DNA of 32,000 bases from Candidatus Saccharimonas aalborgensis (GTDB taxonomy: Bacteria; Patescibacteriota; Saccharimonadia; Saccharimonadales; Saccharimonadaceae): positions 150,001-182,000 of the forward strand of contig NC_021219.1 of the NCBI RefSeq assembly GCF_000392435.1, in the 5' to 3' direction. The notes beneath the pieces were generated by a model. The model searched no databases. It was not told the DNA's origin and worked only from the letters and a program-made list of their open reading frames with translations. The position numbers and the translations under genes were made by a program. How positions within the stretch are numbered: position 1 is the stretch's first letter; each line of letters begins with the position of its first letter. Shown in pieces: positions 5,870 through 31,744 of the stretch.

Positions 5870-6524
5870 ACACACACATACTCACGATGACCATCATCAC
5901 GCACACGGCGAACACGGACACTCGCACGGTATAGTAGACCCGTCTATAGTTCGCTCTAAGCAGGGCGTGAAAGCAGTTAGCCTTAGTTTCCTGGTATTGC
6001 TTGTAACGGCTCTTTTACAGGGTACAGTGTACCTCTCAGGGCATAGCGTAGCCTTATTGTCTGACCTGATACACAACTTTGGCGATGCTCTAACGGCTAT
6101 TCCGCTTGGCTTAGCTTTTTTCTTTCGGAGTAAAAAGGGCGAGCATTGGGCTGGCTACTTCGTGGTAATTCTGATTTTTGTCAGTGCTTGCGTTGCTTTA
6201 TATGAGGTTATTCAACGGTTTATACACCCTCAGTCACTAACAAATCTTTGGGCTATTTTTGCGGCAGGTGTCGTTGGTTTCTTGGGCAATGAGCTTGCAG
6301 CCATTATCCGCACACGGGCAGGTAAAAAGCTGGACAGCCCCGCTCTGATAGCTGACGGCAAACACGCTCACGTTGACGGCTTGGTTAGTCTCGGCGTAGT
6401 TGTCAGCACGATATTCGTAGCACTTGGCTTTCAACAGGCTGACCCGATTGTTGGCTTGTTCATTACATTGCTTATTCTACGAATAACGTGGCAGTCGTGG
6501 CAAACAATTAGGAAAGCAGCCTAG
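5850..6524 (+). CDS. Cation diffusion facilitator, transmembrane domain only, His-rich N-terminus
   Basis: The N-terminus is HTHTHDDHHHAHGEHGHSHG. The CDF metal-site motifs are SVALLSDLIHNFGD (TM2) and ALIADGKHAHVDG (TM5). At 224 aa it has no C-terminal cytoplasmic domain. Confidence 0.8.
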   Translation: MTKQNTEHTHTHDDHHHAHGEHGHSHGIVDPSIVRSKQGVKAVSLSFLVLLVTALLQGTVYLSGHSVALLSDLIHNFGDALTAIPLGLAFFFRSKKGEHWAGYFVVILIFVSACVALYEVIQRFIHPQSLTNLWAIFAAGVVGFLGNELAAIIRTRAGKKLDSPALIADGKHAHVDGLVSLGVVVSTIFVALGFQQADPIVGLFITLLILRITWQSWQTIRKAA

Positions 6525-12686: not shown

Positions 12687-14255
12687 TCAACTATGCTGCA
12701 CCAAAGAAGACTTTTCAGTTACTGGAAGGTCTTTTTTATTTGACTGACCCCTGAAAATGGAGCTTATATTATGGGTGTAAACATTTTTGTTTTCGTCAAC
12801 GTATATTTTGCCTGTAAATAACAATTGTTTACACCGTTTCATATCCTCCCCTGATAACTCGAAGAAACGCCCACCCTTGTTACTAAGAAAGTTAAAGCTA
12901 AAGTCTAAGAACTCAGCTAGGTCTGTTTCGTGTTGTTCACTAAGCACAGCTATCTTATCTTCGTTCTCCGCAAACTCAGCTTTAAGCTTTTCTATTGAAG
13001 CCATTATTTCATCGCTAATCGAAACGAAAGAAGGGTTAGTAACTGCATCTGCTTTTTGAGCTATGCTTTGTTTTATATTGGCGTTAACAGCCTCAAGCCG
13101 TTGTATCTCGCTCTTAGCTTCGTGGTGCTTCGCGTTAAAGGTAGTGACTAGCTTAATCTTTAATTTTCTCATCTCAGCATTTGGCAGTATTACTGCATCT
13201 AGTAAATTGGAGAAGCTAGCGTGAGTTTCGTCTCGGTCTAAGAACCTGTTGCACTCTCTGCACTTATATTTGGCGTAGTAGCTAACTTTCTTTCTAGGCT
13301 TACCGTGGTTAGTCTTGCCGTTATTTAATGGTACGCTCGTGAAGCGTGGATATTTACGTTTTGCCGCTTCGCAAGATATACAGGTAAGTTCATTGCTCAA
13401 TGGGTATTTAGTATTTTTGTCTGGTCTATGACCTTGCTGTTTCTTAACGTTACGCTCAAAGACCCTAAGTATCTTTTCGTGCTCAGTACGGGTTATTAGT
13501 GGCTCGTGTAGACCGTGTTCATTACGTTCGTTAAACTTGCCCTTAAGGTCGATAATTCCTGCGTAATATGGCTCGCAAGCGATTATCCTAAACTTGTCCA
13601 TTTTAAGCTTTGCATAGCGTTTACCGAACTCAGTTTCTTGTAGTTCTTTTAAAGCGTCGGTTGGCGTTTTTAGATTTGAGGCAATCTGCCTTAAAGCTCT
13701 CTTGAGCGGTTCACCAGTAATTGGGTCTACGATATGAACACCAGCCATTGTACCTTTTTTGTAGCCTGCTTTTGGACCAGATGGCAAACGACCCTCTCTT
13801 ATTGCTTTTTTACCACCAGACACTGACTTACTTATGCGTTCTTCGTTACTACCCTCAGCTTGCAAGAACTTTGTGAATTTGAGTAATTTCGATGGTAAAT
13901 CATCCTTATTTAGCTCAGGGTTTGAAGCATACCAAACTCTCGTACCAGTTTCATAGAAAAGTTTAACTTCCCAAAAACCGCTTTCGTCAATTGACCGCAT
14001 AAACCTATCAGGCTCGTCTACGATAAGATACTTTACTCGCTTATTTTTCTTGGCAAAGTCGTATATCTCCAGCAGGTCTTTACGTTGTACGTTACTCCCA
14101 CGTTTACTAGATACGCTACCTGACCACCATTTAATAATTTCTACACCTAATTCTTTAGAGGCGTTAAATACAGCTTCGTGCTGACGATTTAGGCTATTGT
14201 TGTCAAGCTGCTCAGTCGACGATACACGACAAAGTGCTATAGCAAGGTCGCTCAT
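12687..14255 (-). CDS. Large serine recombinase/integrase (second copy, not a close paralog of the first)
   Basis: The N-terminus is AIALCRVSSTEQ with LIVDEPDRFMRS. A recombinase domain and a Zn-ribbon (CISCEAAKRKY...YKCRECNRF) follow, then a C-terminal coiled coil. A good RBS (gagg) lies 8 nt upstream. Confidence 0.88.
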   Translation of the reverse strand: MSDLAIALCRVSSTEQLDNNSLNRQHEAVFNASKELGVEIIKWWSGSVSSKRGSNVQRKDLLEIYDFAKKNKRVKYLIVDEPDRFMRSIDESGFWEVKLFYETGTRVWYASNPELNKDDLPSKLLKFTKFLQAEGSNEERISKSVSGGKKAIREGRLPSGPKAGYKKGTMAGVHIVDPITGEPLKRALRQIASNLKTPTDALKELQETEFGKRYAKLKMDKFRIIACEPYYAGIIDLKGKFNERNEHGLHEPLITRTEHEKILRVFERNVKKQQGHRPDKNTKYPLSNELTCISCEAAKRKYPRFTSVPLNNGKTNHGKPRKKVSYYAKYKCRECNRFLDRDETHASFSNLLDAVILPNAEMRKLKIKLVTTFNAKHHEAKSEIQRLEAVNANIKQSIAQKADAVTNPSFVSISDEIMASIEKLKAEFAENEDKIAVLSEQHETDLAEFLDFSFNFLSNKGGRFFELSGEDMKRCKQLLFTGKIYVDENKNVYTHNISSIFRGQSNKKDLPVTEKSSLVQHS

Positions 14256-15122: not shown

Positions 15123-18100
15123 TTGGCTGAACTGTTGTATAATTTGGTTAGAAATCGAACATTTTTTCAACTTATGACAAAAATACCTGTAACCATCAGT
15201 CAACTAGCAAAATACGGACTTGATTATGTAAGCCTTATATCGAGCAGTGCCTCGAGAAGTAGACCGATAAAAACAGAACCTATGGACGCCAGCCTAGTGT
15301 CCATCCCCGACTTAATTTTCAAAAGCGAAGTCGATACGATAACTATTAACCTCGTTACTTCGTTAGATAGTCAATATGACCCGAACCTGCCAAGTGAAGA
15401 TAAGACAGATGAACAGCTACAAGCTGAGCATCGCGTTATCCGTGACAGGGCCATCTTTGATAAAATCCAAGAAATAGACACAAAGATAAAGACTGACGAA
15501 TACACGAAGCGGGTCGTACTGCAGACGGGCTTTATATCCTTTGAAGGTAAGCGATACAAAGAAACAGAGTTCGGTGAAGAGTATGAGAACTACGAAGCTC
15601 CGTTATTGCAAATTCCAATTGCTGCCATCAACTTCAAATATACGAGTGACGGGGCTAATGTAGTCATTGAACTTCCTGACAGCTATGTAGAAGTATTGAG
15701 TGGTCCACTAAAAAACTATTTACCGCAACAATACTACGATAACGTCTTTAAGTTTGTTGCCGATGCGGAGGCCGAAGGAAAAACTAGCCTACCAATCGGT
15801 AGTGATTTTATTGAAGATTTGTGGTCCGCAATTAGAGTACAGCTTGATAGAGTGGATGCTAGGTCTATTTCTGAAGCACCGAGCTTCGATACAAGTATAG
15901 TTGCGATTACAAATAAGACTAACCACTTCTTAGCAGAAGACCTTAAGGCGATTGCTGCTTTAGAAGATGAAGACCTGATTGAGACTTCCTTGGGAAGCTG
16001 GGTGTCTGACGAAGATATGGCGATAGAACAGGCTGTGTCCGATGATGGCAGTACAGAGATATTCTTTCCATTTGATTATGACAAATACCAACTAAAAGTT
16101 TTGGGCATTACAGCAAATAAGGCAGTCATAGTCGAAGGCCCTCCTGGTACTGGTAAATCTCAAACCATTTCAAACCTACTAGTTCATCTAGCAGCTACGG
16201 GTAAAAGAGTATTATTCGCTAGCCAAAAGGACCAGGCGATACGTGGCGTAAAGGACAAGCTAAAAACTCTTGATGTACCATTTCTTTACGGCTATATACC
16301 TGATAAAACATCTAAGTTGTATACAGCAGATGATGAAAAAGACAGTGCTGCGAATACTCTCATAGCTTTAAACAGAGAATTCCAGAAAGGTAAGGTCGGT
16401 GACTTAAAAGAGCCTCTTGAGTTACTGTCTGACCGTTCAAAGATTTTTGTAGAGAATATGAACATTGAACGTTCGCTCTACTCATTATATGAAGAGCGTC
16501 GAAGCCTTAGCTACCTAGACCCTTATTATAATTACGGAATAGACCTAGAATTCTATGAACAATGTTTAGATTTTGAAAATAGTATAGCTAACCTCGAGGC
16601 TACGATTAAACAATTCGAGAACGTACATAGCAAGTTTATAAAAACTGCTGACACCAAATTCAAAGACCTTGAAATAGACTATCAAGAAACAATATCTTCG
16701 ATTGAGAACATAAACAACTATTTTAAAACCCATATGCCAGAAAGGTCTGGTTTCTTTGCAAGTAAAGTTAATGACCTCAAGCTTCGTAGTGCATTAAAAG
16801 AACACTGCAAAAACATCCTTCAAGAAATATACCTAGAATTTGAAAAGGTGTTGTTTTCAGATAATACAAAGTCAGCAAAACTGAAATTATTAGATGGCCT
16901 AAAAGCATATTTTGTATATTCAAGCGACAACCAGGTATTGGCGTATAACCGTGCGGAACTCGACGGATTACTTCAAAGTAAAGATATGCCTCATACCGCC
17001 CTTGCAAGCCTAAAGAAGCTGGTAAGTGAACACGGTGGATATAAGAAGGTATTTGAAGACCTCGAAAGGTACAACGAGATTTCTGCCCAAATAGACGAAG
17101 CGTCATTATACTCAGCAAATGAGCTAAACCGAGAAATCAAAGATATACGAAAGTTCTACAGAAAAAACATTACGAACTATGTTCGCAATCGAATACTAAC
17201 AAGGGTTGGTGAGGCCAATAACAGCAAAGAGCTGAGAGCGACATTGGCACAAGTTGCTAGAAGTCTTTCAAAGAGTAAGAAAGCAAATAAAACGTTCGAC
17301 AGGCTCAAGCATAACGAAGATAACTTTAGTGCTATGTCAAAAGTTCTACCTATCTGGATGATGAGTTTAGACGACGTGAGCCGTATTGTTCCTTTGGAAA
17401 TGAACGCGTTCGATTACGTGATTATTGACGAAGCATCCCAGTGTAATTTTGCTTATGCGTTCCCAGCTATGTACCGTGCAGAGCATACTATTTTCTTCGG
17501 CGATACTTTACAAATGCGTGACGACAATATTATGTTCAAGTCTAATGACCAACTTAATGCCATAGCAAAGAAGCATAAAATTCCTGATGTTTATCAGATT
17601 AAAGCGGAAGAAGACACCGTTAAATCAGTAATGGACATCGCCAATCTAAATGGTTTTAAGACGACTACTTTAAAGTATCACTATCGTTCCCCTAAAGAGC
17701 TTATAGGCTTCTCAAATGAGGCCTATTACGAGCCTATTGGCCGTAAGCTTGAAGCAGTTAATGATAACATTGTGCCTTATAAAGACACTGGTCGTGTATT
17801 GCTTAATCATTTGGTAACTCCAAATGATAATGAAGAGATTGGCAGTAGGACCAACTTTGCGGAGATACACAAAATTCAACAGTTGGTAGAAGAAATAAAA
17901 ATCGACCCAATTTTGAAAGACAAGTCTATAGCCATATTGACCTTCTTTAACGAGCAAGCCGAAGAAATACGTAAAGCTATTACGGATGAAGACATCAAAG
18001 TTTCGATTATTGACGGTATCCAGGGAGATGAACGCGACATCGTAATTTACTCATTTGTTATTAAAGACCCAAGCGACAAGCGACGCTATATCGCGTTGAC

Positions 18101-19046
18101 TGGTGAAGGTGGTGAGATACGTAAAGATATAGCTGCTGGTCGTGTGAATGTTGCATTTAGCCGTGCCCGACTTCAGGTCCATTGTGTGACTTCTCTTGCC
18201 ACAGAGCTTTGGCCTGAGGGTATTTGGATTAAGAAGTACCTAGAGTATGTTGATAAGAACGGAGCAATATCTAGAAGGCATAGTAAATCCGAGCAGCGTT
18301 TCGATTCGCACTTCGAGGAGCAGGTTTTTAGCTACCTATCAAAGCAGCTTGATGCAAATGAGTTTACGCTCGAAACACAAGCAGGTTCACTCGGGTTTAA
18401 AATTGACCTAGTCGTTCACCATAATGGTAGGAAACTTGCTATTGAGTGTGATGGTCCGACCCACTTTGAGGGAGGAGACGGTCAAGTTTACGTACAGAAC
18501 GACTGGGAGCGTCAAGGGGCATTAGAAGTAGCAGGATGGACCTTCTATCGTATTTCTTACTTCGATTGGGTCGACGACCAAGCAGAGGAAGAGAAAGCCC
18601 TACTACTACATATAGGTGAGTATTTTAATGATGAGCATAATTCAGGTAAGACAAGTGTTGTTAAAGAGCTAGAGAAAGAAACGGTTGCACCTGAGGATGC
18701 CCCGAAAGATACGTATGTAACAGATTTTTCTGACGAACGCGTCGATAATGAAAGTCCCGTTAACGCAACGCCTGCACCACGTGCAACAAAGACTAAGGCT
18801 AAGACTTCGACAAAGAAAGAATTTAGTGTCGGTGACCGTGGTGTTGACCAAGATGTTTTTGAAAGTTATCTACAAGCAAGAGTTAGAGGAACAATAAACA
18901 TAAGATACCAAAGCACTCGCCCTGGCAGCGGGAACTATTGGCGTAATGTAAGCCTAATCAAATACGATGGCACATATCTTTATTCCGAAGGGTCGGGTAC
19001 TTACCCAATCCGATACCGTCGTGACCGCGTCTTAGAATTCAAATAA
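15123..19046 (+). CDS. DUF4011-type SF1 (Upf1/DNA2-like) helicase fused to a DUF559/Vsr-like nuclease; HheA-like defence protein
   Basis: Helicase motifs are Walker A GPPGTGKSQTISNLL, DEASQ, YRSPKELIGFSN, QGDERDIVIYS and NVAFSRAR. The C-terminal KIDLVVHHNGRKLAIECDGPTHF...WERQGALEVAGWTFYRISYFDW matches the DUF559 PD-(D/E)xK pattern. A K/T/P-rich linker and a small terminal domain follow. The probable start is ATG 15174; the track start at 15123 is TTG. Confidence 0.88.
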   Translation: MAELLYNLVRNRTFFQLMTKIPVTISQLAKYGLDYVSLISSSASRSRPIKTEPMDASLVSIPDLIFKSEVDTITINLVTSLDSQYDPNLPSEDKTDEQLQAEHRVIRDRAIFDKIQEIDTKIKTDEYTKRVVLQTGFISFEGKRYKETEFGEEYENYEAPLLQIPIAAINFKYTSDGANVVIELPDSYVEVLSGPLKNYLPQQYYDNVFKFVADAEAEGKTSLPIGSDFIEDLWSAIRVQLDRVDARSISEAPSFDTSIVAITNKTNHFLAEDLKAIAALEDEDLIETSLGSWVSDEDMAIEQAVSDDGSTEIFFPFDYDKYQLKVLGITANKAVIVEGPPGTGKSQTISNLLVHLAATGKRVLFASQKDQAIRGVKDKLKTLDVPFLYGYIPDKTSKLYTADDEKDSAANTLIALNREFQKGKVGDLKEPLELLSDRSKIFVENMNIERSLYSLYEERRSLSYLDPYYNYGIDLEFYEQCLDFENSIANLEATIKQFENVHSKFIKTADTKFKDLEIDYQETISSIENINNYFKTHMPERSGFFASKVNDLKLRSALKEHCKNILQEIYLEFEKVLFSDNTKSAKLKLLDGLKAYFVYSSDNQVLAYNRAELDGLLQSKDMPHTALASLKKLVSEHGGYKKVFEDLERYNEISAQIDEASLYSANELNREIKDIRKFYRKNITNYVRNRILTRVGEANNSKELRATLAQVARSLSKSKKANKTFDRLKHNEDNFSAMSKVLPIWMMSLDDVSRIVPLEMNAFDYVIIDEASQCNFAYAFPAMYRAEHTIFFGDTLQMRDDNIMFKSNDQLNAIAKKHKIPDVYQIKAEEDTVKSVMDIANLNGFKTTTLKYHYRSPKELIGFSNEAYYEPIGRKLEAVNDNIVPYKDTGRVLLNHLVTPNDNEEIGSRTNFAEIHKIQQLVEEIKIDPILKDKSIAILTFFNEQAEEIRKAITDEDIKVSIIDGIQGDERDIVIYSFVIKDPSDKRRYIALTGEGGEIRKDIAAGRVNVAFSRARLQVHCVTSLATELWPEGIWIKKYLEYVDKNGAISRRHSKSEQRFDSHFEEQVFSYLSKQLDANEFTLETQAGSLGFKIDLVVHHNGRKLAIECDGPTHFEGGDGQVYVQNDWERQGALEVAGWTFYRISYFDWVDDQAEEEKALLLHIGEYFNDEHNSGKTSVVKELEKETVAPEDAPKDTYVTDFSDERVDNESPVNATPAPRATKTKAKTSTKKEFSVGDRGVDQDVFESYLQARVRGTINIRYQSTRPGSGNYWRNVSLIKYDGTYLYSEGSGTYPIRYRRDRVLEFK

Positions 19047-19196: not shown

Positions 19197-20135
19197 CTAA
19201 AGCATAGGGGGGGCCATTTTATAGTCGGGTAATTCACCTATTACTGAAATTCTAATTCCATATTTTGTTTTATCAAGTGTGGCAGGGTCTACTTTTGGCC
19301 AGTTTTGAAGCTCTTCGATTGTCAGTGATTCTGACTCTACATTTTGGTTAGTCTGAAATGTGTTTTTTGCTGCATCAAAAATACCTTGTGCGTGCTTAAC
19401 GTTCCATTTGCCATCCAGATACTGTGTGCCAACTTCATAATTGAAGGAGAATTCGTCTATAACCCCCCTTGTACCGTCCGCCATTACAATTTCTTGCTTG
19501 GGCAAAGTATATGCGTACCATCCGTCCGCACCGTTATTAAATTCTTCAATCCTCTCAACCAAATACCCACTGTTCCAAAGCACGTCTTTGAAGACATCAT
19601 ATGCTATAACCGTGTGACTGCCATCGTCAGATACAAGCTCCTGTCTACCCAAATCTTGATAAACATTAAATCCTGAACCAACTGAAGTGTGTTTTATCCC
19701 AAAACTTAGAGCCTTAACATAACGAACCTCAATAAGTGTCTTCGAAGCGATAGCAAATGGGTTTTCCTTATCCGTAGTGTCTATCAAATGAGTTGGTCTT
19801 ATGCCAAAAAATTTAGCTGCTGCAACTGCAGATTCTGCATAGGGGCTGTTAGATACCATCACTCCTAGTGGTACGCCTTCGTCCTTAAGCTTGAAGCCAT
19901 AATCCGCCACATCCTTTATCCCAATGTTCCGTTTATGGTCTTTAGCGTCAAAGTCAATCTGTTGCGTGCCAGTATCAAGTAAAGTATCAACTTGTCGTTT
20001 GCCGCCAGTAATTGTTGCAGGTAACTTTACATCGTCTTTAATTTCAGAGTTAGGATAGAGCTTTCTAACCATAGCACTGACTTTCTTTTCATACTTTTTG
20101 CCGTCGTTAGATTTTTTATGCTTTTTCTTAGTCAT
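19197..20135 (-). CDS. Mrr-cat-type restriction-endonuclease-fold protein with an unknown C-terminal domain
   Basis: The N-terminus GKKYEKKVSAMVRKLYP...GGKRQVDTLLD...IDFDAKDHKRNIGIKDVADYGFKL...GVMVSNSPYAESA follows the Mrr_cat pattern (G..fE..v......D.l....v..K......v....v..f). About 190 aa of the C-terminus are unassigned. Confidence 0.6.
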   Translation of the reverse strand: MTKKKHKKSNDGKKYEKKVSAMVRKLYPNSEIKDDVKLPATITGGKRQVDTLLDTGTQQIDFDAKDHKRNIGIKDVADYGFKLKDEGVPLGVMVSNSPYAESAVAAAKFFGIRPTHLIDTTDKENPFAIASKTLIEVRYVKALSFGIKHTSVGSGFNVYQDLGRQELVSDDGSHTVIAYDVFKDVLWNSGYLVERIEEFNNGADGWYAYTLPKQEIVMADGTRGVIDEFSFNYEVGTQYLDGKWNVKHAQGIFDAAKNTFQTNQNVESESLTIEELQNWPKVDPATLDKTKYGIRISVIGELPDYKMAPPML

Positions 20136-20841: not shown

Positions 20842-21009
20842 TCAAATTAGGCTATCTTCAACGATGTAAGTCTTGCTCGGTAGTAGCATACTCTTATACT
20901 GGGCATAAGGTACGGCTAAAATATCACGCCATCTTTGTATTTCTAACCTCAGTTCCGCATAGCTATCCGCGATAGTTTGGTGTAAAAGCTTTTGGTCCTC
21001 GTGCACCAT
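20842..21009 (-). CDS. Possible small protein (55 aa); the long 119-aa version is rejected
   Basis: MVHEDQKLLHQTIADSYAELRLEIQRWRDILAVPYAQYKSM... lies 14 nt upstream of the membrane protein gene. Residues upstream of this Met are encoded by repeat B1 and are unlikely to be coding. Confidence 0.3.
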   Translation of the reverse strand: MVHEDQKLLHQTIADSYAELRLEIQRWRDILAVPYAQYKSMLLPSKTYIVEDSLI

Positions 21010-21142
21010 AGAAGACACCGCCTCAATGGCGGTATTTTCTATGGCTGTACACAGTTTCCACTTTGTGGGGCCAGGCCACTTGCTTTGTTTATTCAGGCAA
21101 ATTGGTAGAATATTAACACTTCTTAGGGGTGAACTCCATATC
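21004..21142 (+). repeat. Repeat family B, copy 1 (17-bp hairpin plus about 100-nt conserved tail)
   Basis: It is about 88% identical by eye to 26890-27027. It opens with the hairpin ccatagaagacaccgcc-tcaat-ggcggtattttctatgg (21006-21044). It also contains tggtagaat, an extended -10-like box facing the beta-helix gene. Confidence 0.85.
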
Positions 21143-22592: not shown

Positions 22593-22868
22593 CCCCCAGA
22601 AAAACAGATGGGTTTTGCTCCGCAAAACCATACTTTCCCAAACAAAAACGGGCGTTTCGCGCCCGGATTTGCGGATTTGTCCAAATTTGGTGGAGTTTTA
22701 CAACCAAGTTCGAACCGAATTCGAGCAAAATGGCCGAAGCGCAGCCCCAACACCTGCGGGCACGCTGCGCCCGCTCGCCCCACCAGAAAAACCCTTTGGT
22801 TATTTTTTTGAGATTTCCCCCCGCCGAATTTCTTTTGTTGTTGTAAGGGGTGTTTTCTGGTGGTGGCG
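22593..22868 (-). repeat. Repeat family A, element L (MITE-like; inverted relative to element R)
   Basis: 22812-22868 is the reverse complement of 25163-25218, about 54/57 by eye with one 1-nt indel. The core tggtggagttttacaaccaagttcgaaccgaattcgagc (22688-22726) matches inverted 25296-25337 and 26857-26894. The ends carry ccagaaaaac / gtttttctgg-type terminal inverted repeats. Confidence 0.85.
22641..22664 (-). terminator. Intrinsic terminator on the minus strand, inside repeat element L
   Basis: Read on the minus strand it is GGGCG-CGAAA-CGCCC followed by GUUUUUGUUU. Confidence 0.65.
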
Positions 22869-22904
22869 CGTTACATATGCTCGGTGTAGTACAATAGATC
22901 AGAG

Positions 22905-23762
22905 ATGAACTGGGAAGTATTTGTCGTTATCAACCTAATCACCGCTTCGTTGCTCGTACCATTGCAACGTCTTTTATTGCGCCGAGAAGAAACTGATCCG
23001 TTGACTTTTATTGTTGTGTCACAGGTTATTACCGGTGCCCTACTTATACCATTCACGCTTGCACATGGCTTTGAGTTCCCCGACATTAATAAATATGGCC
23101 TGCTAATGATTACAATGTTTGGGCTTTACAGTATCGGACATTATCTCTATGCGCACACGCTCAAGCGTGTCGAAGCTTCTGTATTCTCAACGTTGCTCAA
23201 CACGAGCACAATTTGGGTAATTGCAATGGGTTATCTTGTATTGCACGAAGAGTTGCATCTCTCGGATATTGTTGGGACGGTTATCATCATGACAAGTGTG
23301 TTTATGCTCATGGAGCGTAAAAAGAAACATAGGCTACACCTTGAAAAATCTATTCTCATGGGATTGCTTGTCGGATTAATATTCGGTGTCGCTTTGTCAA
23401 TGTGGGTATACATAGGCAAAGGCTCGGACTTATTGTCATGGATAACAATTAGCTTCTTCGGAACGCCCCTTATTATGCTTGCCGTGAAACCAAAGGTAGC
23501 ACGAAAAGCAAGGCACTTTTTCTCTGGTGAGTTGCTACCTAGAATGTTAATACTTGCTGTTGTATGGGCGGTTGATAATCTTGCCTCACTGGCTGCATAT
23601 CAGCATGGTAACGTCAGTATTATTGCACCGTTGCTGCAAACAAGCGCAATCTTAAGCGTACTCGTTGCGATTATATTCTTAGGGGAAAGAACTCGGTTAC
23701 GCTGGAAAATTGCTGCATCTGTTGTTTGTTTTATCGGCGTTGTACTGATTATTAGTTTCTAA
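22905..23762 (+). CDS. EamA/DMT-superfamily transporter (10 TM)
   Basis: Two EamA-like halves are present. The C-terminal half is typical: SIIAPLLQTSAILSVLVAIIFLGERTRLRWKIAASVVCFIGVVLI. Confidence 0.8.
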   Translation: MNWEVFVVINLITASLLVPLQRLLLRREETDPLTFIVVSQVITGALLIPFTLAHGFEFPDINKYGLLMITMFGLYSIGHYLYAHTLKRVEASVFSTLLNTSTIWVIAMGYLVLHEELHLSDIVGTVIIMTSVFMLMERKKKHRLHLEKSILMGLLVGLIFGVALSMWVYIGKGSDLLSWITISFFGTPLIMLAVKPKVARKARHFFSGELLPRMLILAVVWAVDNLASLAAYQHGNVSIIAPLLQTSAILSVLVAIIFLGERTRLRWKIAASVVCFIGVVLIISF

Positions 23763-23798
23763 CAAATAATCCGGTGAAGCAATGACAGCCCTAGTTCG

Positions 23799-23807
23799 TG
23801 ATATAAT
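23799..23807 (+). promoter_or_regulatory. Extended -10 promoter candidate (TGaTATAAT)
   Basis: tgatataat sits in the intergenic region after the DMT stop, facing the retron leader. An atgaca -35-like hexamer is only 14 nt away, so activity would rely on the extended -10. Confidence 0.35.
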
Positions 23808-24006
23808 ATACATGGGACTGCTTAGGCAGTCGGTACGTTTTTATCATTTTCTGCTCGCTCGAGGTGTTGTGACATGGCAACTATGCCATAAATAGTCCCC
23901 CTTTAATGTGATTCTTGTAATGCGTTAATGTGTGGCTATTACGCCCGGCTTCGCCGGCGCGAGACCTACCGGTTACGGAGCTTGTCTTTGTACCGATACG
24001 TTTCTA

Positions 24007-24263
24007 GAGGCCAAAGTACGTTGTATGACCTTTTCTGGACAGTGCGGAAAGCGAGACCCCGCGTATGCGTGGAGAAAGGAAATGTGATGAACTTACAGCG
24101 TACTAAATATAAACGTACGACTCCAAAGTCTCTTACTGAATACTCATCAACGAGCATCAGTCTGGGCGATGGCTTCAAGCTACTGGTTCAAACCATAGTG
24201 AAAATCATCGAAAAGTACTTTGGTCTCCTCTATGTTTCTATCTATTAGGTAGGCGCATACGGG
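24007..24263 (+). ncRNA. Candidate retron msr-msd non-coding RNA (boundaries tentative)
   Basis: There are nested long-range inverted repeats just upstream of the RT. Option 1: gaggccaaagtac (24007-19) pairs with gtactttggtctc (24215-27), 12 WC plus 1 GU, followed by G24020. Option 2: cgtatgcg (24062-69) pairs with cgcatacg (24254-61), followed by GG 24071-72. Option 2 encloses a small hairpin (cgtac..gtacg) and a 109-nt imperfect hairpin (24119-24227). Confidence 0.45.
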
Positions 24264-24268
24264 AGAAT

Positions 24269-25129
24269 ATGGGGAACACGGAGGAACTAGAAAAATTATT
24301 AGCAGACTACCCCGCCGAGGCGAGAGTTTTTTGTGCATTAGAACCAAAACGCGACGGTACGTCGCGTCCTATTATCAAGCCAAATAAGCCGCTCAATCAG
24401 TGGCTCAAGCGTATGAAACGCGCTTTGTATCGACAACGTAGAGACTGGCCGACGTTTATTCACGGCGGAGTGAAAAAGCGAAGTTATGTATCATTCGCTC
24501 GCCCTCACGCCAACAAGAACACCGTCATTACTATTGACATAAAAGACTGTTTTGGCTCCATAACACAAAGCGAGGTGCAACAAGCCCTCGTCAGTAAACT
24601 CGGCTTACCGGACGGCCTTGCCTCTCGGCTTGCAGCAAAATTGTGCTACAAACGCCGCATACCACAGGGTTTTGCAACAAGTAGCTATCTGACCAATCTA
24701 TATCTCAACGACACACTACTGAAAATCAACCGCCAACTTAAGCGCAAACAAATTGACATGACTGTGTACGTCGATGATATTGCGCTGTCGGGACAAAAAG
24801 TTGATAGTGCGGTGATTATCAACCTAGTCACGCTTGAGCTATCTCGCGCGCGGTTAGCAATAAGCAAGGCTAAGGTGAAAGTTATGCGCTCTCATAGTCC
24901 GCAAATTATTTGTGGACTTGTTGTCAATAAAGGCGTAGCCCTTTCGCGACAAAAACGGAAAGAAATTTTTTCAGATATAGCCAACGGACGTATGAGCGAG
25001 ACAAGTTTACAGGGCTGGCTAGCGAACTTAAATATGATAGACAGACGGCTTATGAATAAGTTGCAAACATACGCTACACAAAAAGGCCTGGTGGTAGTGA
25101 GCGCGAAGCGCGGCGGTCTTGCCGCCTAG
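24269..25129 (+). CDS. Retron-type reverse transcriptase (286 aa, no fused effector domain)
   Basis: It is colinear with the Ec86 RT as I recall that sequence. KRDGTSRPIIKPNKPL aligns with KKGPEKRMRTIYQPSREL. HGGVKKRSYVSFARPHANKNTVITIDIKDCFGSI aligns with the NAxxH...DLxDFFPS block. LCYKRRIPQGFATSSYLTNLYL aligns with ICCYKNLLPQGAPSSPKLANL. TVYVDDIALSG aligns with YTRYADDLTLS. PQIICGLVVNKG aligns with RKVTGLVIS. LQGWLANLNMID aligns with VRGWLSFILSVD. Confidence 0.9.
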   Translation: MGNTEELEKLLADYPAEARVFCALEPKRDGTSRPIIKPNKPLNQWLKRMKRALYRQRRDWPTFIHGGVKKRSYVSFARPHANKNTVITIDIKDCFGSITQSEVQQALVSKLGLPDGLASRLAAKLCYKRRIPQGFATSSYLTNLYLNDTLLKINRQLKRKQIDMTVYVDDIALSGQKVDSAVIINLVTLELSRARLAISKAKVKVMRSHSPQIICGLVVNKGVALSRQKRKEIFSDIANGRMSETSLQGWLANLNMIDRRLMNKLQTYATQKGLVVVSAKRGGLAA

Positions 25130-25162
25130 GCGAAGCCTCAACACCTCTACTGCTTGCAGTAG

Positions 25163-25465
25163 TCGCCACCACCAGAAAACACCCTTTACAACAACAAAAG
25201 AAATTCGGCGGGGGAAATCCAAAAAATGCAAAAGGCAGGGCTGGCGGGACGGGCTTGCGTTTCTCGCAAGCAATCGGCGGGGTTTGTTCACGCATTTCGC
25301 TCAAAATGGGTTCGAGCTTGGTTGTAAAAATACACCAAATCAGGACAAAATTGCAAATTCGGGCGGAAGTTTGCGCTCCGCCCCAGCCAGAAAAACCTTT
25401 GATTGTTTCTTTTTATAATTTCCCTTGCCGTGTTTTTTGGAAACTGAAAAGGGTGTTTTGGTTTG
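25163..25465 (+). repeat. Repeat family A, element R (MITE-like)
   Basis: It has an inverted M module (25163-25225), the conserved core (25296-25337), a GC hairpin gggcgga..tccgccc (25360-25382) and a direct M module (25383-25465). Its ends ccaccagaaaacaccctttac and gaaaagggtgttttggtttg form terminal inverted repeats. Confidence 0.85.
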
Positions 25466-25569
25466 TCGGTTCTACCTTATGGCAAAAAGGAGTTGTAAAG
25501 AGTACAATTTAAATATAACCCTAAACCAAATCTCTGTTTGGCATGGTTTATAAATCCACAAAGAGAAAC

Positions 25570-25656
25570 AGCTCGTCACGGGTACTTCTTTTTGTGTTCG
25601 CGTGGGGAAACCCGCGCGGGTGGTCGCAAGGCTGCCGCTCGTGGCGAGCTTTTTGG
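25570..25656 (+). other. Structured leader/terminator-like element upstream of the 2TM gene
   Basis: An 11-bp closing stem pairs agctcgtcacg (25570-80) with cgtggcgagct (25640-50), followed by tttt. It encloses the hairpin gcgtggg-GAAA-cccgcgc (25600-25617), which has a GNRA loop. Confidence 0.45.
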
Positions 25657-25697
25657 TACGTCACGAAAATATTGCCAAATAAGTAAAAGGGGCTAAA

Positions 25698-26396
25698 GTG
25701 TCAAATAGTAACGAATGGTATAAAAGAAACACGTCAATCATACTTCTACTATTTTTCTTTTTTCCAGTTGGCCTCTACCTGATGTGGAAGTATGCAAATT
25801 GGAATAAGGTAGTAAAAATAATCATTAGCGTGCTGTTGGGGCTGACTGTTATTGTAGTGTTAACTAACCCGCCAAAAGAGCCGGTTAAAGATACTCAAGA
25901 AACGAATACGGAGCAGAGACAGCAAACTCAACAAGCACAACCGCAACAACCAGCTGCGAGTGCATATAGCTACGACTGGGGTAATGAGGGGACAAATACT
26001 TACTGGTTGCTCGCGAAAGATGTAGACAACAGTAGCGCAGACTTAAAGGATCGCATCAAGGCTACAATAGCAGACTTTAGCAAGAAAGTTTCGTTCACGA
26101 CAAACACCCTAGTCAGTGTCACAGATAACGCTAACGTATTTAAGTGCGAAACATTGGCGGGAAAACCAGGCTACACGGGGTCTGAATATGTTGCTTGTCT
26201 AAACGAAGCTGGAGGCAAAGACGCCTATAATGCCGCCACTTCTGCGCATAATATTGCTCTTTATAGCCATAATTTTAAGTACAATATGGACGCCACGGAG
26301 TGCAAAGATAAATGTAATGAACTAATGTTCTATCCCGATGCGTCAAAAACATCTGAGCAAGCAAAGTATAAAGAAACGCTATACTGGAAACCATAG
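25698..26396 (+). CDS. 2TM membrane protein with a Q-rich linker and an extracytoplasmic domain
   Basis: The start is GTG with RBS aagggg. The TM segments are SIILLLFFFFPVGLYLMW and VVKIIISVLLGLTVIVVLT. A linker QETNTEQRQQTQQAQPQQP follows, then a Cys-containing C-terminal domain. Confidence 0.65.
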   Translation: MSNSNEWYKRNTSIILLLFFFFPVGLYLMWKYANWNKVVKIIISVLLGLTVIVVLTNPPKEPVKDTQETNTEQRQQTQQAQPQQPAASAYSYDWGNEGTNTYWLLAKDVDNSSADLKDRIKATIADFSKKVSFTTNTLVSVTDNANVFKCETLAGKPGYTGSEYVACLNEAGGKDAYNAATSAHNIALYSHNFKYNMDATECKDKCNELMFYPDASKTSEQAKYKETLYWKP

Positions 26397-26404
26397 GAGG
26401 TGTT

Positions 26405-26806
26405 ATGGGATTATTTAGTGTTAGTGAAGAAGAGAAAGCAAAGCGAGAACAAGCGAAAAAAGAAAGCACAGCAGCTAAAGAAGAAGCAGCATTTAGCGCC
26501 TCGCCCGTCGGAAAAGCGCGCCAAGCCTACGAAGACGGTCTAAAATACTATCAAGTATCTTTTGATTTAGAGCGAGTTGGGACTAATTCTGTTAGTGTTA
26601 TGGCACGCAGACAAATTAAATCAACATGCGACCCTGTCGGGGCAATTCTAACAGCCATCGACGATGAGGGATGGCAACTAATCCAGGCGGGCTATACTTT
26701 CCGCCAAACCCACCAAGATAGTCGAGATAAATTTCTATCTAGCGGCCAGCAGGTCGCCATTACTGGTCAGACAGTTGGCTTATACCTCTTTAGGCGCAGG
26801 CCGTAA
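26405..26806 (+). CDS. Hypothetical protein (133 aa), possibly DUF4177-like
   Basis: A strong SD (ggaggtg) lies 6 nt upstream, and the start is 8 nt after the 2TM gene stop. The C-terminus AILTAIDDEGWQLIQAGYTF...GLYLFRR resembles the EGWELV...FKR pattern. The assignment is weak. Confidence 0.55.
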   Translation: MGLFSVSEEEKAKREQAKKESTAAKEEAAFSASPVGKARQAYEDGLKYYQVSFDLERVGTNSVSVMARRQIKSTCDPVGAILTAIDDEGWQLIQAGYTFRQTHQDSRDKFLSSGQQVAITGQTVGLYLFRRRP

Positions 26807-26810
26807 TTGT

Positions 26811-26894
26811 GTTTAGGCGGTGGCTTTGTCGCCTAGGGCGGAGCTTAGCCACTCCGCTCGTAATCGGTTCGAACTTGGTTGTAAAACTCCACCA
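26811..26894 (+). repeat. Repeat family A, partial third copy (core only), fused to repeat B2
   Basis: ctcgtaatcggttcgaacttggttgtaaaactccacca (26857-26894) matches the reverse complement of the L core nearly perfectly and also matches the R core. It is preceded by the GC hairpin gcggag-cttagcca-ctccgc. Confidence 0.8.
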
Positions 26895-27027
26895 TAGAAA
26901 ACACCGCCTCAATGGCGGTATTTTCTATGGTAGTACACAAGTTTCCAGTTTCTGGGACCAAGCCCCTTGCTTTGTTTATTCAGGCAAATTGGTAAAACTA
27001 ACGCTTCTTAGGGGTGAACACCATACA
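26890..27027 (+). repeat. Repeat family B, copy 2
   Basis: It is a direct repeat of 21004-21142. The hairpin ccatagaaaacaccgcc-tcaat-ggcggtattttctatgg is at 26892-26930. Confidence 0.85.
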
Positions 27028-27067
27028 CCATACACTCTATACACTATACCTCCTATCCATATCTCCT

Positions 27068-28852
27068 TTATTGCGAAAAAAACCTTTTACACAAATCGTC
27101 CGTAATTTTACCGAATTCATCATGCAAGCTCTTAGTATTTTTGAGCGAGATATCCTTCCAGTCTATAAAATTTTTGAAGGATGCGACTTCAGTGGGCATT
27201 CCCACATCATTTTTCATAAGTTGTCTCTCACAGTACTCGATGATTAGCTCCTCTGCTTGCTGCGTACTCTTCTCAGCTATCGCTTCAAGGTATTCAAGTT
27301 CTTCGATATGAAGTATTACAAAGGGATAGAGTTTGTTCCTAGATAGTGTGGGAGTAACCGATGAAGCATAGCCATTGTAGTAACGACGATTAATTGGATC
27401 TGCGGGTAAGTCATCTTCTGTAACGAGTATAGGCACAATGATGTCAGGCAACTTATATCCAGGGATTTGCACTGCATTGTCACGAAGAAGTGACACGAAA
27501 TGGTCAATTTGCTGAAGACCCTTGCGTTTATGCTTTTTTTTCGGGTTCCTGGTCTTTTTAGTGCCAAATAATTGTTGAAGCGAACTCTTCATGTTTGGAC
27601 GCGAGGCATAAAGCTGCATTTTATAGGGGATATGAAGGGCTTTAGCCTCAATGATAAGCAAAGCTTTATTACCCAACACTAGACCATCTGCAAGCTCGCC
27701 GTATCTTTTGATGGTAAAGTTCCTAATGACCTTACTGGAACCAAATCCACTCTCAAGTCGGTCAAGTGCATATTTCTCAAACCCAACTGACCAAGCTTTA
27801 GGCAGCAAGCCAAGTCTGCTTTTATCATCGACTCGGTTCAAATATTCATTCATTTGCCAATAAACACCGAGTGTCGTCCTGTTAGCCAATAACCTAGGTG
27901 AAGCACACATGATTTTTTGTTGCCCAATCATAATTACTGGATGTCTCATAAAAACCATAAAATTATTCTGGTGCGGACTTCCACGCAGAACTGTGCTGAT
28001 AACCTCTTTGTTCTCTGATTCATAATCTTGCAGTTTCATCGTATATAACCCAAGTAGTGTTTGTAGCTGCTCAGGAGTAAGCTTCATTTGAGAAAAATAA
28101 TCCATATCTCTGACGACATCGTTATCTAAATCTGGCTCTGAGCTATGAATTGACCATTCAGTCATAAGCGAGAAGCCAAAACCAATATAGTCAGAGATGG
28201 TTACCCCCGTGGCATCAGTGAATAACTGCTCAATATCCAAGTTATGGGGATTTGAAGCACAGCGTTTAACAATGAGCGTTGTCCTTGCTAGCTGATGTAG
28301 TATATTTGGGCGGGACGTTAGGAAGCTCTGCTCAGCGAAAGCCATTCGCATTCGCTCCACAGCATATTTGGTCATCTTTGGTTTGCCATTTACCATTCTG
28401 TAGTGCATGCCACGCGGAGCAATGGCACGATGCGTCCATTGTTCGGTTAATACCAATAGCCATTTACCAAACTGTTCAAGCTGTTCGGGAGTTGCTATAT
28501 CCTGGCCAGCATCCGAGTCGCAGTTATCAATCGCAAGTGCAATAAGTGCCAATAAGGGAGGTTCTGTAAAGAACACCCACTCGTCACTCAGCCCCTGATT
28601 CTTTCTGGCTTGAAACAACTTGGCGATTTTTTCTCTGGTTTCCTGCGAGAAGAAACTTCTGAGTAGTTTAATCTGTTCATTGTTGTCTTTTACGGGAGTT
28701 TTATAAAGAACGATGCTGAGCTTTGACGCTACAATAAGGACAGCCCATAGGTTGTAGTCTTGTAACTCTTTGCCTACTTGCTTAACACTACGCATTTCTC
28801 CGAATATATCTGAGTAGCCAAAGTTCACGTTTACGTAATCTGCAACTGCCAT
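27068..28852 (-). CDS. Hypothetical protein (594 aa) with a C-terminal PD-(D/E)xK-like nuclease motif
   Basis: It is a long clean ORF. GELADGLVLGNKALLIIEAKALH fits D-x(n)-E-x-K of restriction-endonuclease-fold proteins. The N-terminal roughly 380 aa are unassigned. Confidence 0.7.
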   Translation of the reverse strand: MAVADYVNVNFGYSDIFGEMRSVKQVGKELQDYNLWAVLIVASKLSIVLYKTPVKDNNEQIKLLRSFFSQETREKIAKLFQARKNQGLSDEWVFFTEPPLLALIALAIDNCDSDAGQDIATPEQLEQFGKWLLVLTEQWTHRAIAPRGMHYRMVNGKPKMTKYAVERMRMAFAEQSFLTSRPNILHQLARTTLIVKRCASNPHNLDIEQLFTDATGVTISDYIGFGFSLMTEWSIHSSEPDLDNDVVRDMDYFSQMKLTPEQLQTLLGLYTMKLQDYESENKEVISTVLRGSPHQNNFMVFMRHPVIMIGQQKIMCASPRLLANRTTLGVYWQMNEYLNRVDDKSRLGLLPKAWSVGFEKYALDRLESGFGSSKVIRNFTIKRYGELADGLVLGNKALLIIEAKALHIPYKMQLYASRPNMKSSLQQLFGTKKTRNPKKKHKRKGLQQIDHFVSLLRDNAVQIPGYKLPDIIVPILVTEDDLPADPINRRYYNGYASSVTPTLSRNKLYPFVILHIEELEYLEAIAEKSTQQAEELIIEYCERQLMKNDVGMPTEVASFKNFIDWKDISLKNTKSLHDEFGKITDDLCKRFFSQ

Positions 28853-31394: not shown

Positions 31395-31470
31395 GGCTCT
31401 TTAGCTCAGTTGGTAGAGCAGAGGCCTGAAGAGCCTTGTGTCACTAGTTCGAGTCTAGTAGGAGCCACCA
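31395..31470 (+). tRNA. tRNA-Phe (anticodon GAA), CCA encoded
   Basis: Manual cloverleaf. Acceptor is GGCTCTT/AGGAGCC. D-arm is GCTC-AGTTGGTA-GAGC. Anticodon arm is GAGGC-CTGAAGA-GCCTT. Variable loop is GTGTC. T-arm is ACTAG-TTCGAGT-CTAGT. It ends A-CCA. Confidence 0.92.
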
Positions 31471-31479
31471 TACGAAAGC

Positions 31480-31505
31480 ATCCCTCGTGATATGAGGGAT
31501 TTTTT
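31480..31505 (+). terminator. Intrinsic terminator after tRNA-Phe
   Basis: atccctc-gtgatat-gagggat followed by ttttt. Confidence 0.8.
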
Positions 31506-31569: not shown

Positions 31570-31641
31570 TGTCACTAGTTCGAGTCTAGTAGGAGCCACC
31601 ATACGAAAGTATCCCCCCATATCTAGGAGGGATTTTTTCGT
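31570..31641 (+). repeat. Duplicated 3' part of tRNA-Phe plus its terminator
   Basis: tgtcactagttcgagtctagtaggagccaccatacgaaag repeats 31439-31478 exactly. It is followed by a terminator hairpin with changed stem bases (atcccccc..ggagggat ttttt). I could not fold a full cloverleaf. Confidence 0.85.
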
Positions 31642-31669: not shown

Positions 31670-31744
31670 GCGGGTATCGTATAACGGCTATTATATGACC
31701 TTCCCAAGGTTGAGACGGGAGTTCGACTCTCCCTACCCGCACCA
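31670..31744 (+). tRNA. tRNA-Gly (anticodon CCC), CCA encoded
   Basis: Manual cloverleaf. Acceptor is GCGGGTA/TACCCGC. Anticodon arm is TGACC-TTCCCAA-GGTTG. T-arm is GGGAG-TTCGACT-CTCCC. It ends A-CCA. The D stem is weak (3 bp). Confidence 0.88.

Follow-up and report, generated by a model that had tools for sequence, protein, structure and literature searches.

Introduction

Type VI retrons are laid out as a non-coding RNA (ncRNA), a gene for a small protein (SP), a gene for a helix-turn-helix (HTH) protein and a gene for the reverse transcriptase (RT), in this order (bioRxiv 10.1101/2025.10.22.683967; 10.64898/2026.04.27.721009), and their RTs belong to clade 3 (Mestre et al. 2020). Here we compare with them a locus of Candidatus Saccharimonas aalborgensis at positions 23763-25129 of a stretch of 32,000 nucleotides (nt), NC_021219.1 150,001-182,000 (assembly GCF_000392435.1), which is called the window below and whose numbering is used throughout. 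The original prediction for this locus was a stand-alone retron, an RT with a structured leader and no effector. The retron RT and the covarying leader were both borne out, but the absence of an effector was not, because the leader codes for a conserved SP. In our view the locus is probably a self-contained retron of the Type VI kind, made of three parts (a structured RNA, an SP embedded in it and an RT) and lacking the HTH gene; its function, which makes it a candidate for anti-phage defence, is predicted. The whole module of ncRNA, SP and RT takes up about 1.35 kb.

Two Type VI retrons have been studied closely. Retron-Vpa2 makes a 'hybrid RNA' of about 470 nt that carries msr-msd together with a toxic SP whose translation is repressed (Zhang et al. 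2025, bioRxiv 10.1101/2025.10.22.683967). The Shine-Dalgarno (SD) sequence and the start codon lie in stem-loops, and inverted repeats close the structure. Conserved 7-nt direct repeats, one in msd and one in the loop of the riboregulator, are proposed to let the multicopy single-stranded DNA (msDNA) open the ribosome-binding site; the system builds up msDNA only once triggered, and its HTH acts as a repressor of reverse transcription (bioRxiv 10.1101/2025.10.22.683967).

In the Retron-Sen3/cl2075 lineage, the ncRNA is situated no farther than about 280 nt from the start of the SP (Garcia-Rodriguez et al. 2026, bioRxiv 10.64898/2026.04.27.721009). A stem-loop directly before the 5' inverted repeat (IR) of Retron-Sen3 is needed for defence, the SD lies in the basal stem, the pairing of IR1 with IR2 flanks the SP gene without significant covariation, and the HTH neutralises the SP (bioRxiv 10.64898/2026.04.27.721009). 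According to the literature, an HTH (cluster 2_1, 91-110 amino acids (aa)) is present in about 78% of Type VI retrons and missing from about 22% of entries; in both Vpa2 and Sen3 it is needed for viability or repression. The published SP clusters (cl2075, cl2760, cl3272, cl3897 and the Vpa2-like 'Large' group) are described as three-helix bundles.

Homologues and related loci

Homologues of the RT were sought among 5.8 billion proteins, which gave about 56, with 39-80% identity and nearly all about 279 aa long. A second, profile-based search covered 1.84 billion representatives. In addition, scans of genome and metagenome contigs gave 39 related loci (L001-L039), and the named contigs among these are almost all Saccharibacteria or Saccharimonadales metagenome-assembled genomes. 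The SP was checked in the 36 related Saccharibacteria loci with upstream sequence, and the RNA structure was worked out on an alignment of 23 sequences.

A conserved small protein is encoded in the leader

The 506-nt stretch upstream of the RT had been regarded as non-coding. It was found to hold a conserved open reading frame (ORF) of 53 codons at 24087-24248 that is under purifying selection, and in the window this SP ORF is preceded by GGAGAAAGGAA. The ORF is intact in all 36 loci, down to an RT identity of 41%, and codes for 52-72 aa; the start codon and a GAAAGG(A/G) SD sequence 6-9 nt upstream of it are likewise kept in 36 of 36. The third codon position varies most. The ratio of non-synonymous to synonymous substitution (dN/dS, pairwise Nei-Gojobori) is 0.29 in frame, compared with 1.22 and 0.91 in the other two frames. 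By segment it was 0.16 for codons 2-15, 0.40 for codons 16-41 and 0.34 for codons 42-50; for codons 16-41, a segment free of the RNA pairing boxes described below, the in-frame value of 0.40 stands against 0.79 off frame.

The SP consensus is MK.QRTKYKRTTPKSQTE...G.GF..LL..V.KIIEKYFGLLY. A profile search gave 79 homologues at E <= 1e-13, which carry no Pfam domain and only generic or spurious names, for example 'hypothetical protein'. The N-terminus is strongly basic (RTKYKRTTPK), with R5, T12 and P13 invariant. An AlphaFold model made from a 52-sequence alignment predicts a beta-hairpin (residues 2-23) followed by a helix (residues 28-52), with a mean predicted local distance difference test score (pLDDT) of 68; a fold search of the PDB with this model gave no match at E <= 0.001, the best being at E = 4. 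The C-terminal helix is hydrophobic and contains K, E and Q, owing to which the SP is not predicted to be transmembrane.

SP and RT are separated by 20 nt in the window, and over the 36 loci this gap varies between -34 and +37 nt. In ten loci (L001, L002, L006, L007, L011, L013-L015, L025 and L032) the SP ORF is extended and overlaps the start of the RT by 4-34 nt. These overlaps, together with a hairpin that encloses the SP stop codon and reaches the SD of the RT, suggest that translation of the RT is coupled to that of the SP, which is awkward to square with a fully silenced toxin.

Clustering of the ORFs of at least 70 aa within 3.5 kb of the RT revealed no flanking gene that is conserved across the 39 loci. 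The SP is the only conserved neighbour of the RT, and EamA, the gene upstream of the module in the window, is not associated with the retron. A conserved flanking effector as the missing partner was looked for and not found, the flanking genes differing between the 39 loci. It is most likely that the supposedly missing effector is the conserved 53-residue protein coded inside the structured RNA leader.

The reverse transcriptase

The motifs by which the ORF had been recognised as a retron RT, FARPH, PQGFATSSYLTNL, YVDDIALS, ICGLVVN and GWL, were all found in the translation. In an alignment of 37 homologues, H80 (in FARPH), D90, Q133 and G134 (PQG), Y167, D169 and D170 (YVDD) and N220 are invariant, and G216 is invariant or nearly so; with an invariant YVDD, the catalytic centre is intact. 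The protein also proved to be free of a maturase, endonuclease or fused effector domain, as had been claimed for the last of these.

The best PADLOC model for the RT is RT_VI (3.1e-49, 165.7 bits), followed by RT_III-A at 135.3 bits, and all the top 25 PADLOC matches listed are retron RT models, at 81-166 bits. Among the NCBIfam models, the retron families St85, TIR and Ec67 match at 83-102 bits; St85 (3.7e-29, 101.9 bits) remains far below its curated cutoff of 235. Non-retron models match weakly (group II intron RT, 36.6 bits; Drt2, 29.4; Drt3a, 24.6).

In the profile search over the representatives, a Saccharibacteria clade of RTs (14 representatives) scored 181-440 bits and all other proteins 166 bits or less. 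Nine of the ten best outsiders to this clade have RT_VI as their best match, by 45-70 bits, and 92 of 125 outsiders match RT_VI at E <= 1e-60. The relatives of one such outsider sit in canonical operons, with an SP of 66-70 aa, an HTH of 93-98 aa and an RT of 328-339 aa. A neighbour-joining tree of 134 RTs showed the Saccharibacteria clade as monophyletic on a long, separate branch; its sister group could not be resolved in this tree, which is saturated (about 1.6 substitutions per site). Retron RT models dominate the matches, with RT_VI the best. Judged by its sequence, the 286-aa ORF is a retron RT, and the RTs nearest to it outside its clade are of the canonical Type VI; the tree was built without typed reference RTs.

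A nearly identical copy of the locus is present in the nearest public complete genome (L045; CP064959.1 421217-427705), which matches 22772-28129 of the window with 99.46% identity over 5.3 kb and 15 indels; the homology ends at 22772, within a repeat upstream of the module. SP, RT and EamA have all lost their reading frames there through these indels; the annotation of that genome gives the RT as a hypothetical protein of 162 aa, which does not differ from the C-terminal part of our RT except in its start codon. Because the indels are evenly spread over all genes, they look more like assembly error than retron decay.

The structured leader RNA

Conservation between loci begins at an extended -10 element, TGnTATAAT with the variants TAAAAT and TACAAT, and the flanks 5' of it are unrelated from one locus to another; a promoter-like site 2 nt out of register with this element was also called in the window. 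Transcription probably starts near 23814, which puts the SP ATG 273 nt downstream. In 31 loci, the -10 box and the RT ATG are 422-547 nt apart, mostly 452-476.

Helices were obtained with RNAalifold and by a systematic scan for conserved stacks. It is clear that the leader is a covarying structured RNA: in the resulting model, 92.9% of the alignment cells are paired, compared with 35-46% when the partners are slid; 40 of the 72 pairs show changes on both sides, and none of 500 shuffles reached the observed values on any measure. The minimum free energy of the leader RNA has a z-score of -2.98. A covariance model of 23812-23908 found exactly one strong match per Saccharibacteria locus, at 68-110 bits (14 loci). 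When the leader was compared with Rfam, no family matched at E <= 1; only LOOT RNA was matched, downstream of it. The features of the locus are collected in Table 1.

Table 1. Coordinates of the features of the retron locus in the window.
Feature	Position	Strand	Remarks
Extended -10 promoter, TGaTATAAT	23799..23807	+	Aligned in all loci that include upstream sequence
Structured hybrid RNA, about 450 nt, ncRNA part and embedded SP coding sequence	23814..24262	+	Covariation
P1, 5' stem-loop GACUGC UUAG GCAGUC	23816..23831 (23816-21/23826-31)	+	Directly before the 5' IR
5' IR, GGUACGUU	23832..23839	+	Pairs with 24097-24104 (AGCGUACU), SP codons 4-6
P2, 5' strand UGUUGU and invariant G23871	23865..23871	+	Strand pairs with 24039-24044
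P3, hairpin AUGGCA-ACUA-UGCCAU, then conserved AAAUAG	23874..23889 (23874-79/23884-89)	+	Highly conserved
Variable core, folds into hairpins	23900..24004	+	Heterogeneous in length and sequence between conserved flanks
Direct repeat 1, GCGAGACC	23959..23966	+	In the variable core; exact copy of 24051-24058
IR1, GAGGCCAAAGUAC	24007..24022	+	Pairs with IR2 (24215-27); overlaps the mid box
Mid box, GUACGUU	24016-22	+	Pairs with 24112-18; 98.1% paired, 4/7 pairs covary
Anti-SD, CCUUUUCU	24029..24036	+	Complementary to the SP SD GAAAGG (24074-79)
Direct repeat 2, GCGAGACC	24051..24058	+	Just 5' of a small hairpin (24059-63/24068-72) and the SD
SP gene, 53 aa, MNLQRTKYKRTTPKSLTEYSSTSISLGDGFKLLVQTIVKIIEKYFGLLYVSIY	24087..24248	+	Conserved ORF; candidate toxic effector
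IR2, GUACUUUGGUCUC	24215..24227	+	Inside SP codons 43-47; partner of IR1
Terminal hairpin	24228..24262	+	Encloses the SP stop (24246-48), reaches the RT SD GGGAG (24261-65)
RT, 286 aa	24269..25129	+	ORF; Pfam RVT_1 2.8e-18; Type VI-like clade

At the 5' end, all six pairs of P1 covary and 98.5% of its cells are paired. The helix formed by the 5' IR with the early SP codons is paired in 96.7% of cells and has one compensatory case in each of three of its eight pairs, the covariation being weak because both strands are nearly invariant. In P2, five of six pairs covary and 90.5% of cells are paired, and the G at 23871 is the same in all 23 sequences. By analogy with described retrons, P2 is a candidate for the a1/a2 duplex and G23871 the best candidate for the priming guanosine. 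P3 is paired in 100% of cells, with compensatory cases in four of six pairs, and may be an msr-like element by which the RT recognises its RNA.

The variable core that follows is a candidate msd, the presumed template of reverse transcription. In the window, the stretch 23890-24006 folds into three hairpins (z = -2.9), and the single msd hairpin of 109 nt that had been envisaged was not recovered; a core hairpin, 23945-49/23953-57, covaries in four of its five pairs.

Two long-range duplexes of the a1/a2 kind had also been put forward. The first, of 13 bp between 24007-19 and 24215-27, does exist, and it extends to 16 nt with 88% complementarity; it is kept in the relatives, where 82% of cells are paired over the 16 positions and 91% over the nine outer pairs. 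Its outer helix (IR1 24007-15/IR2 24219-27) shows little covariation, and IR2 has a rival partner in CCAAAGU at 24123-29, which is paired with 24217-23 in 99% of cells, with compensatory cases in four pairs. The G after this duplex, G24020, which had been put forward as a possible priming guanosine, is invariant, but it lies inside the covariation-supported helix 24016-22/24112-18. The second duplex, 24062-70/24253-61, has 8 perfect bp in the window and is not conserved: 62% of cells pair, and its covariation score is no better than that of a pairing slid by two columns.

Towards the 3' end, the anti-SD is paired with the SD in 93-98% of cells, and since the only changes are from C-G to U-G, the support for this helix is conservation and not covariation. 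The terminal hairpin has 14 pairs, nine of them with compensatory change, and 93.8% of its cells are paired.

We also noticed that boxes other than GCGAGACC are duplicated. GUACGUU occurs twice (23833-39 and 24016-22) and faces two CGUAC boxes (24099-24103 and 24114-18), and CCAAAGU occurs twice as well (24011-17 and 24123-29), the two copies competing for one ACUUUGG (24217-23). Covariation gives each GUACGUU a partner of its own, in a crossed arrangement, and no simple nested fold covers all the duplicated boxes.

The direct repeats lie at -128 and -36 from the SP start in the window. They are present and co-vary in 18-19 of the 23 loci. Their sequence differs between loci, with variants that include GCGAGACC, CGAGACCC, GAGGGAC, GCGGGACA, GCAGGACA, GGGACAACC and ACGGGACAC, the two copies matching each other. 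The identity of the copies is 8.2/11 within a locus and 6.7/11 between loci, a result that 0 of 10,000 permutations reached, in a test inflated by the relatedness of the loci; the concerted change also holds for the 12 distinct combinations. The argument is drawn from the conserved position and the concerted change of the repeats, not from their significance in a single locus.

Comparison with described systems

The likeness to Type VI retrons begins with the RT, which has RT_VI as its best match and Type VI RTs as its nearest outside relatives. In both cases, the SP gene lies between ncRNA and RT and forms part of a structured RNA of about 450-470 nt. Directly before the 5' IR stands a stem-loop, here P1, as it does in Sen3; from the probable transcription start to the SP ATG the distance is 273 nt here, and the ncRNA of cl2075 is reported to lie no more than about 280 nt from the SP. 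The SP's ribosome-binding site is sequestered, and a long-range IR1/IR2 pairing encloses the SP gene. Two short conserved direct repeats are shared as well, one of them in the msd-like region and the other beside the SD hairpin; similarly, a canonical locus (L042) carries a direct repeat of 9-10 nt, GTGAGGCCG, at -143 and -71 from the SP start. Finally, the SP has a hydrophobic C-terminal helix. Features of Type VI that were found at the locus are thus the RT lineage, an SP gene upstream of the RT, the hybrid-RNA architecture and the direct-repeat pair. The original prediction had left the choice between an effector of a new kind and a rearranged locus; neither is needed, as the SP occupies the position of the Type VI SP toxin in the same kind of hybrid RNA.

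Features of Type VI that were not found are the HTH gene, an SP of a described cluster or helical-bundle fold, and homology of the RNA with canonical ncRNAs. No Cro/C1 HTH gene lies directly upstream of the RT or overlaps it. IR2 is found inside the 3' end of the SP coding sequence and not after the stop codon, and the hosts are Saccharibacteria, members of the candidate phyla radiation (CPR). What is missing by comparison with a canonical Type VI retron is the HTH gene and not the effector, and this HTH-less variant is confined to Saccharibacteria. In a search for further reference loci, tblastn of a canonical Type VI RT against plasmids gave only matches of 33% identity or less, which belonged to other retron types.

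With retrons such as Ec86/Eco1 or St85, the locus shares the RT motifs (an NAxxH-like FARPH, YVDD and a VTG-like ICGLVVN) and a structured RNA immediately upstream on the same strand; in addition, the covarying duplex 23865-70/24039-44, the invariant G and the conserved hairpin follow one another in the classical order of a1, G and msr. It differs from them in that its effector is a small ORF within the RNA, whereas theirs is a separate enzyme gene. By analogy with Type VI, its msDNA would act as an activator and not as an antitoxin, and the score against the St85 family is far below the cutoff, as given above.

The locus also resembles type I toxin-antitoxin systems and other riboregulated small toxins, in which a short protein with a hydrophobic helix has its SD and early codons occluded by conserved intramolecular pairings. 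In contrast to these, no antisense RNA gene is evident here, the SP is not predicted to be transmembrane, and release would be driven, if the analogy with Type VI holds, by DNA reverse-transcribed from the same transcript.

Several results weigh against the assignment to Type VI. On the side of the protein-coding genes, none of the 36 clade loci was found to have an HTH gene separating SP from RT, and tblastn with three HTH queries detected no homologue anywhere in the 32-kb window. With 166 bits against the 224-264 of typical Type VI RTs, the RT scores some 60-100 bits lower on RT_VI; in length it falls 40-55 aa short of its Type VI neighbours, and, as mentioned, the tree was built without typed reference RTs. 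The SP is predicted to be a beta-hairpin with a single helix and not a three-helix bundle, in a model of pLDDT 68. In sequence it is unrelated to the SPs of three canonical loci. When it was compared with the SPs of two canonical loci, hhalign gave a probability of 1-2%, i.e. no significant similarity; over 13 residues of the C-terminal helix, an alignment with one canonical SP has 31% identity and 57% similarity, far below significance. For the named clusters, the comparison is limited to these two canonical SPs.

On the side of the RNA, the covariance model of the 5' module had no match in L012, L039, L042, L043 or L044, the canonical or distant loci, and the likeness of the RNA to Type VI is for this reason one of architecture only. 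The structure was derived from the same alignment that scored it. The helix of the mid box crosses two others, P2 and the one formed by the 5' IR; all three are well paired, and P2 and the mid-box helix both covary strongly; this implies either a pseudoknot or alternative conformations. The 8-nt repeat taken in the single locus is only marginally unexpected, as 5-9% of shuffles reach the match. Lastly, the msDNA, the toxicity of the SP, phage defence and the ends of the transcript are all deduced, by analogy with the described systems.

Alternative explanations

The SP may not be a toxin. It could instead be an accessory of the RT, such as a nucleic-acid chaperone or a partner that binds RNA, or a leader peptide that opens the RT's ribosome-binding site, in a system with another output or none. 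The strongly basic N-terminus with its invariant R5, T12 and P13 would suit such a role, as would the signs of translational coupling (the stop codon in a covarying hairpin that reaches the RT SD, and the SP/RT overlaps); the absence of an antitoxin-like HTH would be easier to tolerate with a harmless SP, and the sequence is unrelated to canonical SPs. However, the SP matches the toxic SPs of Vpa2 and Sen3 in its position in a hybrid RNA, its sequestered SD and its hydrophobic C-terminal helix, and a pure leader peptide would not need selection at the amino-acid level along its whole length. We consider this explanation unlikely.

The locus might also be a canonical Type VI system with its HTH partner coded elsewhere in the genome and acting in trans. 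XRE-family HTH proteins of about 71 aa are indeed encoded within 0.05-2.3 kb of the RT in five to six divergent members of the clade (L008, L011, L031, L033, L038 and, weakly, L015). Their coordinates are 6129-6344 (the region in L008, L040 and L041), 3269-3484 in L031 and, on the minus strand, 2486-2722 in L011, 229-441 in L033 and 5810-6028 in L038. Because position and strand vary, a link of these genes to the retron is doubtful, and XRE HTH genes are common in mobile islands, so that their proximity in a few loci may be due to chance. An HTH directly upstream of the RT was seen in L012, a Dojkabacteria locus with 31% RT identity. The 32-kb window has no homologue of the XRE proteins or of the L012 HTH, no Pfam HTH domain was found in the neighbouring ORFs of the window, and none of the genes lies near the RT in the approximately 25 loci of the window's own subclade. 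Going by the 32-kb window and these loci, an HTH acting in trans seems quite unlikely to us.

A stand-alone retron with a non-coding msr-msd, as first proposed, would have an effector that is unlinked, lost by rearrangement or of another kind, and the small ORF would be an accident of RNA conservation. It is true that the most conserved parts of the SP, codons 4-13 and 43-47, coincide with RNA pairing boxes, and that inverted repeat elements flank the segment of EamA and the retron. Searches of all neighbouring ORFs with PADLOC, Pfam and NCBIfam revealed no retron effector domain beside the RT; all that was seen was a weak GapS1-like match on the opposite strand, at a distance of 2 kb. Nevertheless, all 36 loci keep the frame, start codon, SD and length of the SP, even where RT identity falls to 41%, the selection in codons 16-41 acts outside the RNA boxes, and Type VI effectors are known to be arranged in this way, while the flanking genes vary between loci. 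Since the leader holds a conserved SP and no flanking gene is conserved, EamA and the downstream genes need not be invoked, and we regard a stand-alone retron as very unlikely.

That the RT belongs to a non-retron class (defence-associated RT/unknown group (DRT/UG), abortive infection (Abi), group II intron or diversity-generating retroelement (DGR)) with an upstream RNA unrelated to msDNA synthesis is hardly credible: the weak matches to group II intron RT, Drt2 and Drt3a and the want of an Rfam family for the leader would agree with it, but all the top PADLOC matches listed are retron RT models, the NCBIfam retron families score 83-102 bits against 37 or less for others, the protein has no maturase, endonuclease or fused effector domain, and its outside relatives are Type VI retron RTs.

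Proposed mechanism

We therefore return to the three-part retron of the Type VI kind without an HTH. By analogy with Vpa2 and Sen3, a single transcript would carry the ncRNA, the SP gene and the RT gene. In the resting fold, translation of the SP would be held down by the pairing of the anti-SD (24029-36) with the SD and of the 5' IR (23832-39) with SP codons 4-6. The RT would bind the conserved 5' module (P1 and P3), prime on the 2'-OH of a guanosine, for which G23871 is the best candidate, and copy the variable core (about 23900-24038) into single-stranded DNA. Phage infection would let this DNA accumulate, and the complement of repeat 1 could then anneal to repeat 2 beside the SD hairpin; alternatively, the copying would destroy the anti-SD strand. 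Either event would open the SP's ribosome-binding site. The SP, with its basic N-terminal hairpin and hydrophobic C-terminal helix, would then be made and would arrest or kill the cell. As there is no HTH, the RNA by itself, or a factor coded elsewhere, would have to exert the control.

Genomic context

The same-strand gene upstream of the module was confirmed to code for an EamA transporter (Pfam, 1.2e-21). The repeat element said to follow the RT was also found, at 25164-25365, with an inverted copy at 22660-22868. Together with a fragment at 26848-26894, these are copies, 75-90% identical, of an intergenic repeat of about 200 bp. Here and in six related loci, one copy begins immediately behind the RT stop; the loci carrying the repeat are L006, L014, L016, L017, L020, L023 and L001. 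The inverted copy precedes the gene before the retron, so that the pair brackets a cassette of two units, which in the window are EamA and the retron. The repeats could mark the ends of a non-autonomous mobile cassette as its terminal inverted repeats, serve as a recombination site, or act as a common terminator or small RNA element.

A second repeat family, of about 107 nt, has direct copies at 21004-21110 and 26890-26997 with 90-94% identity. They sit in the intergenic gaps that bound gene cassettes, and in 26848-26997 a copy abuts the fragment of the 200-bp family. The LOOT RNA (Rfam RF03000) lies at 25518-25636 on the plus strand, between the downstream repeat of the retron and the next gene, and scores 63.1 bits against a gathering score of 46.4; terminator-like hairpins follow at 25631-25649.

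Much of the window seems to be an integrated island, as is suggested by a 46-nt direct repeat (31439-31484 and 31570-31615, 98% identity) and two large serine recombinases on the minus strand (546-2207 and 12687-14255). The repeat overlaps the 3' part of a tRNA gene and adjoins a further tRNA, a pattern of mobile-element integration; tRNAs are found at 647-719, 31395-31467 and 31670-31741. Between the flanking tRNAs, the island carries recombinases, metal-resistance genes and defence-like genes. A 1307-aa protein (15123-19046, plus strand) has superfamily 1 helicase domains (AAA_11/AAA_12) and an MTES_1575 restriction-endonuclease-like domain, and a 312-aa protein (19197-20135, minus strand) has a weak Mrr_cat match. 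The GapS1-like match mentioned above is to a 594-aa protein (27068-28852, minus strand) and lies below the threshold of this antiphage family (1.6e-10, 40.5 bits, cutoff 320). Additionally, the retron of L040 adjoins type IV secretion genes (TraC, TrbC and TraG-like), which indicates a conjugative element.

Implications

Standard defence-system callers would leave this RT an orphan, the HTH partner being absent and the small ORF unannotated. In the literature that could be searched we found no paper on retrons in Saccharibacteria, and the module of ncRNA, SP and RT assigns a likely complete retron to this group. The SP adds a new small-protein family, with about 80 members, to the effectors of Type VI. 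The locus also offers a natural HTH-less comparison for the two control layers proposed for Type VI, msDNA-gated translation in Vpa2 and HTH-mediated neutralisation in Sen3, and with about 1.35 kb it is an attractive minimal system for studying how reverse-transcribed DNA switches on translation.

It is conceivable, although we put it forward only tentatively, that this is a minimal retron in which a toxic SP has no protein antitoxin or repressor and is controlled purely by the fold of its mRNA and by the DNA reverse-transcribed from the same RNA. If so, the HTH of Type VI would be dispensable, and RNA- and msDNA-gated translation would be the ancestral core mechanism; in the ultra-small, episymbiotic bacteria of the CPR, no retron defence system would then have been defined before this one.

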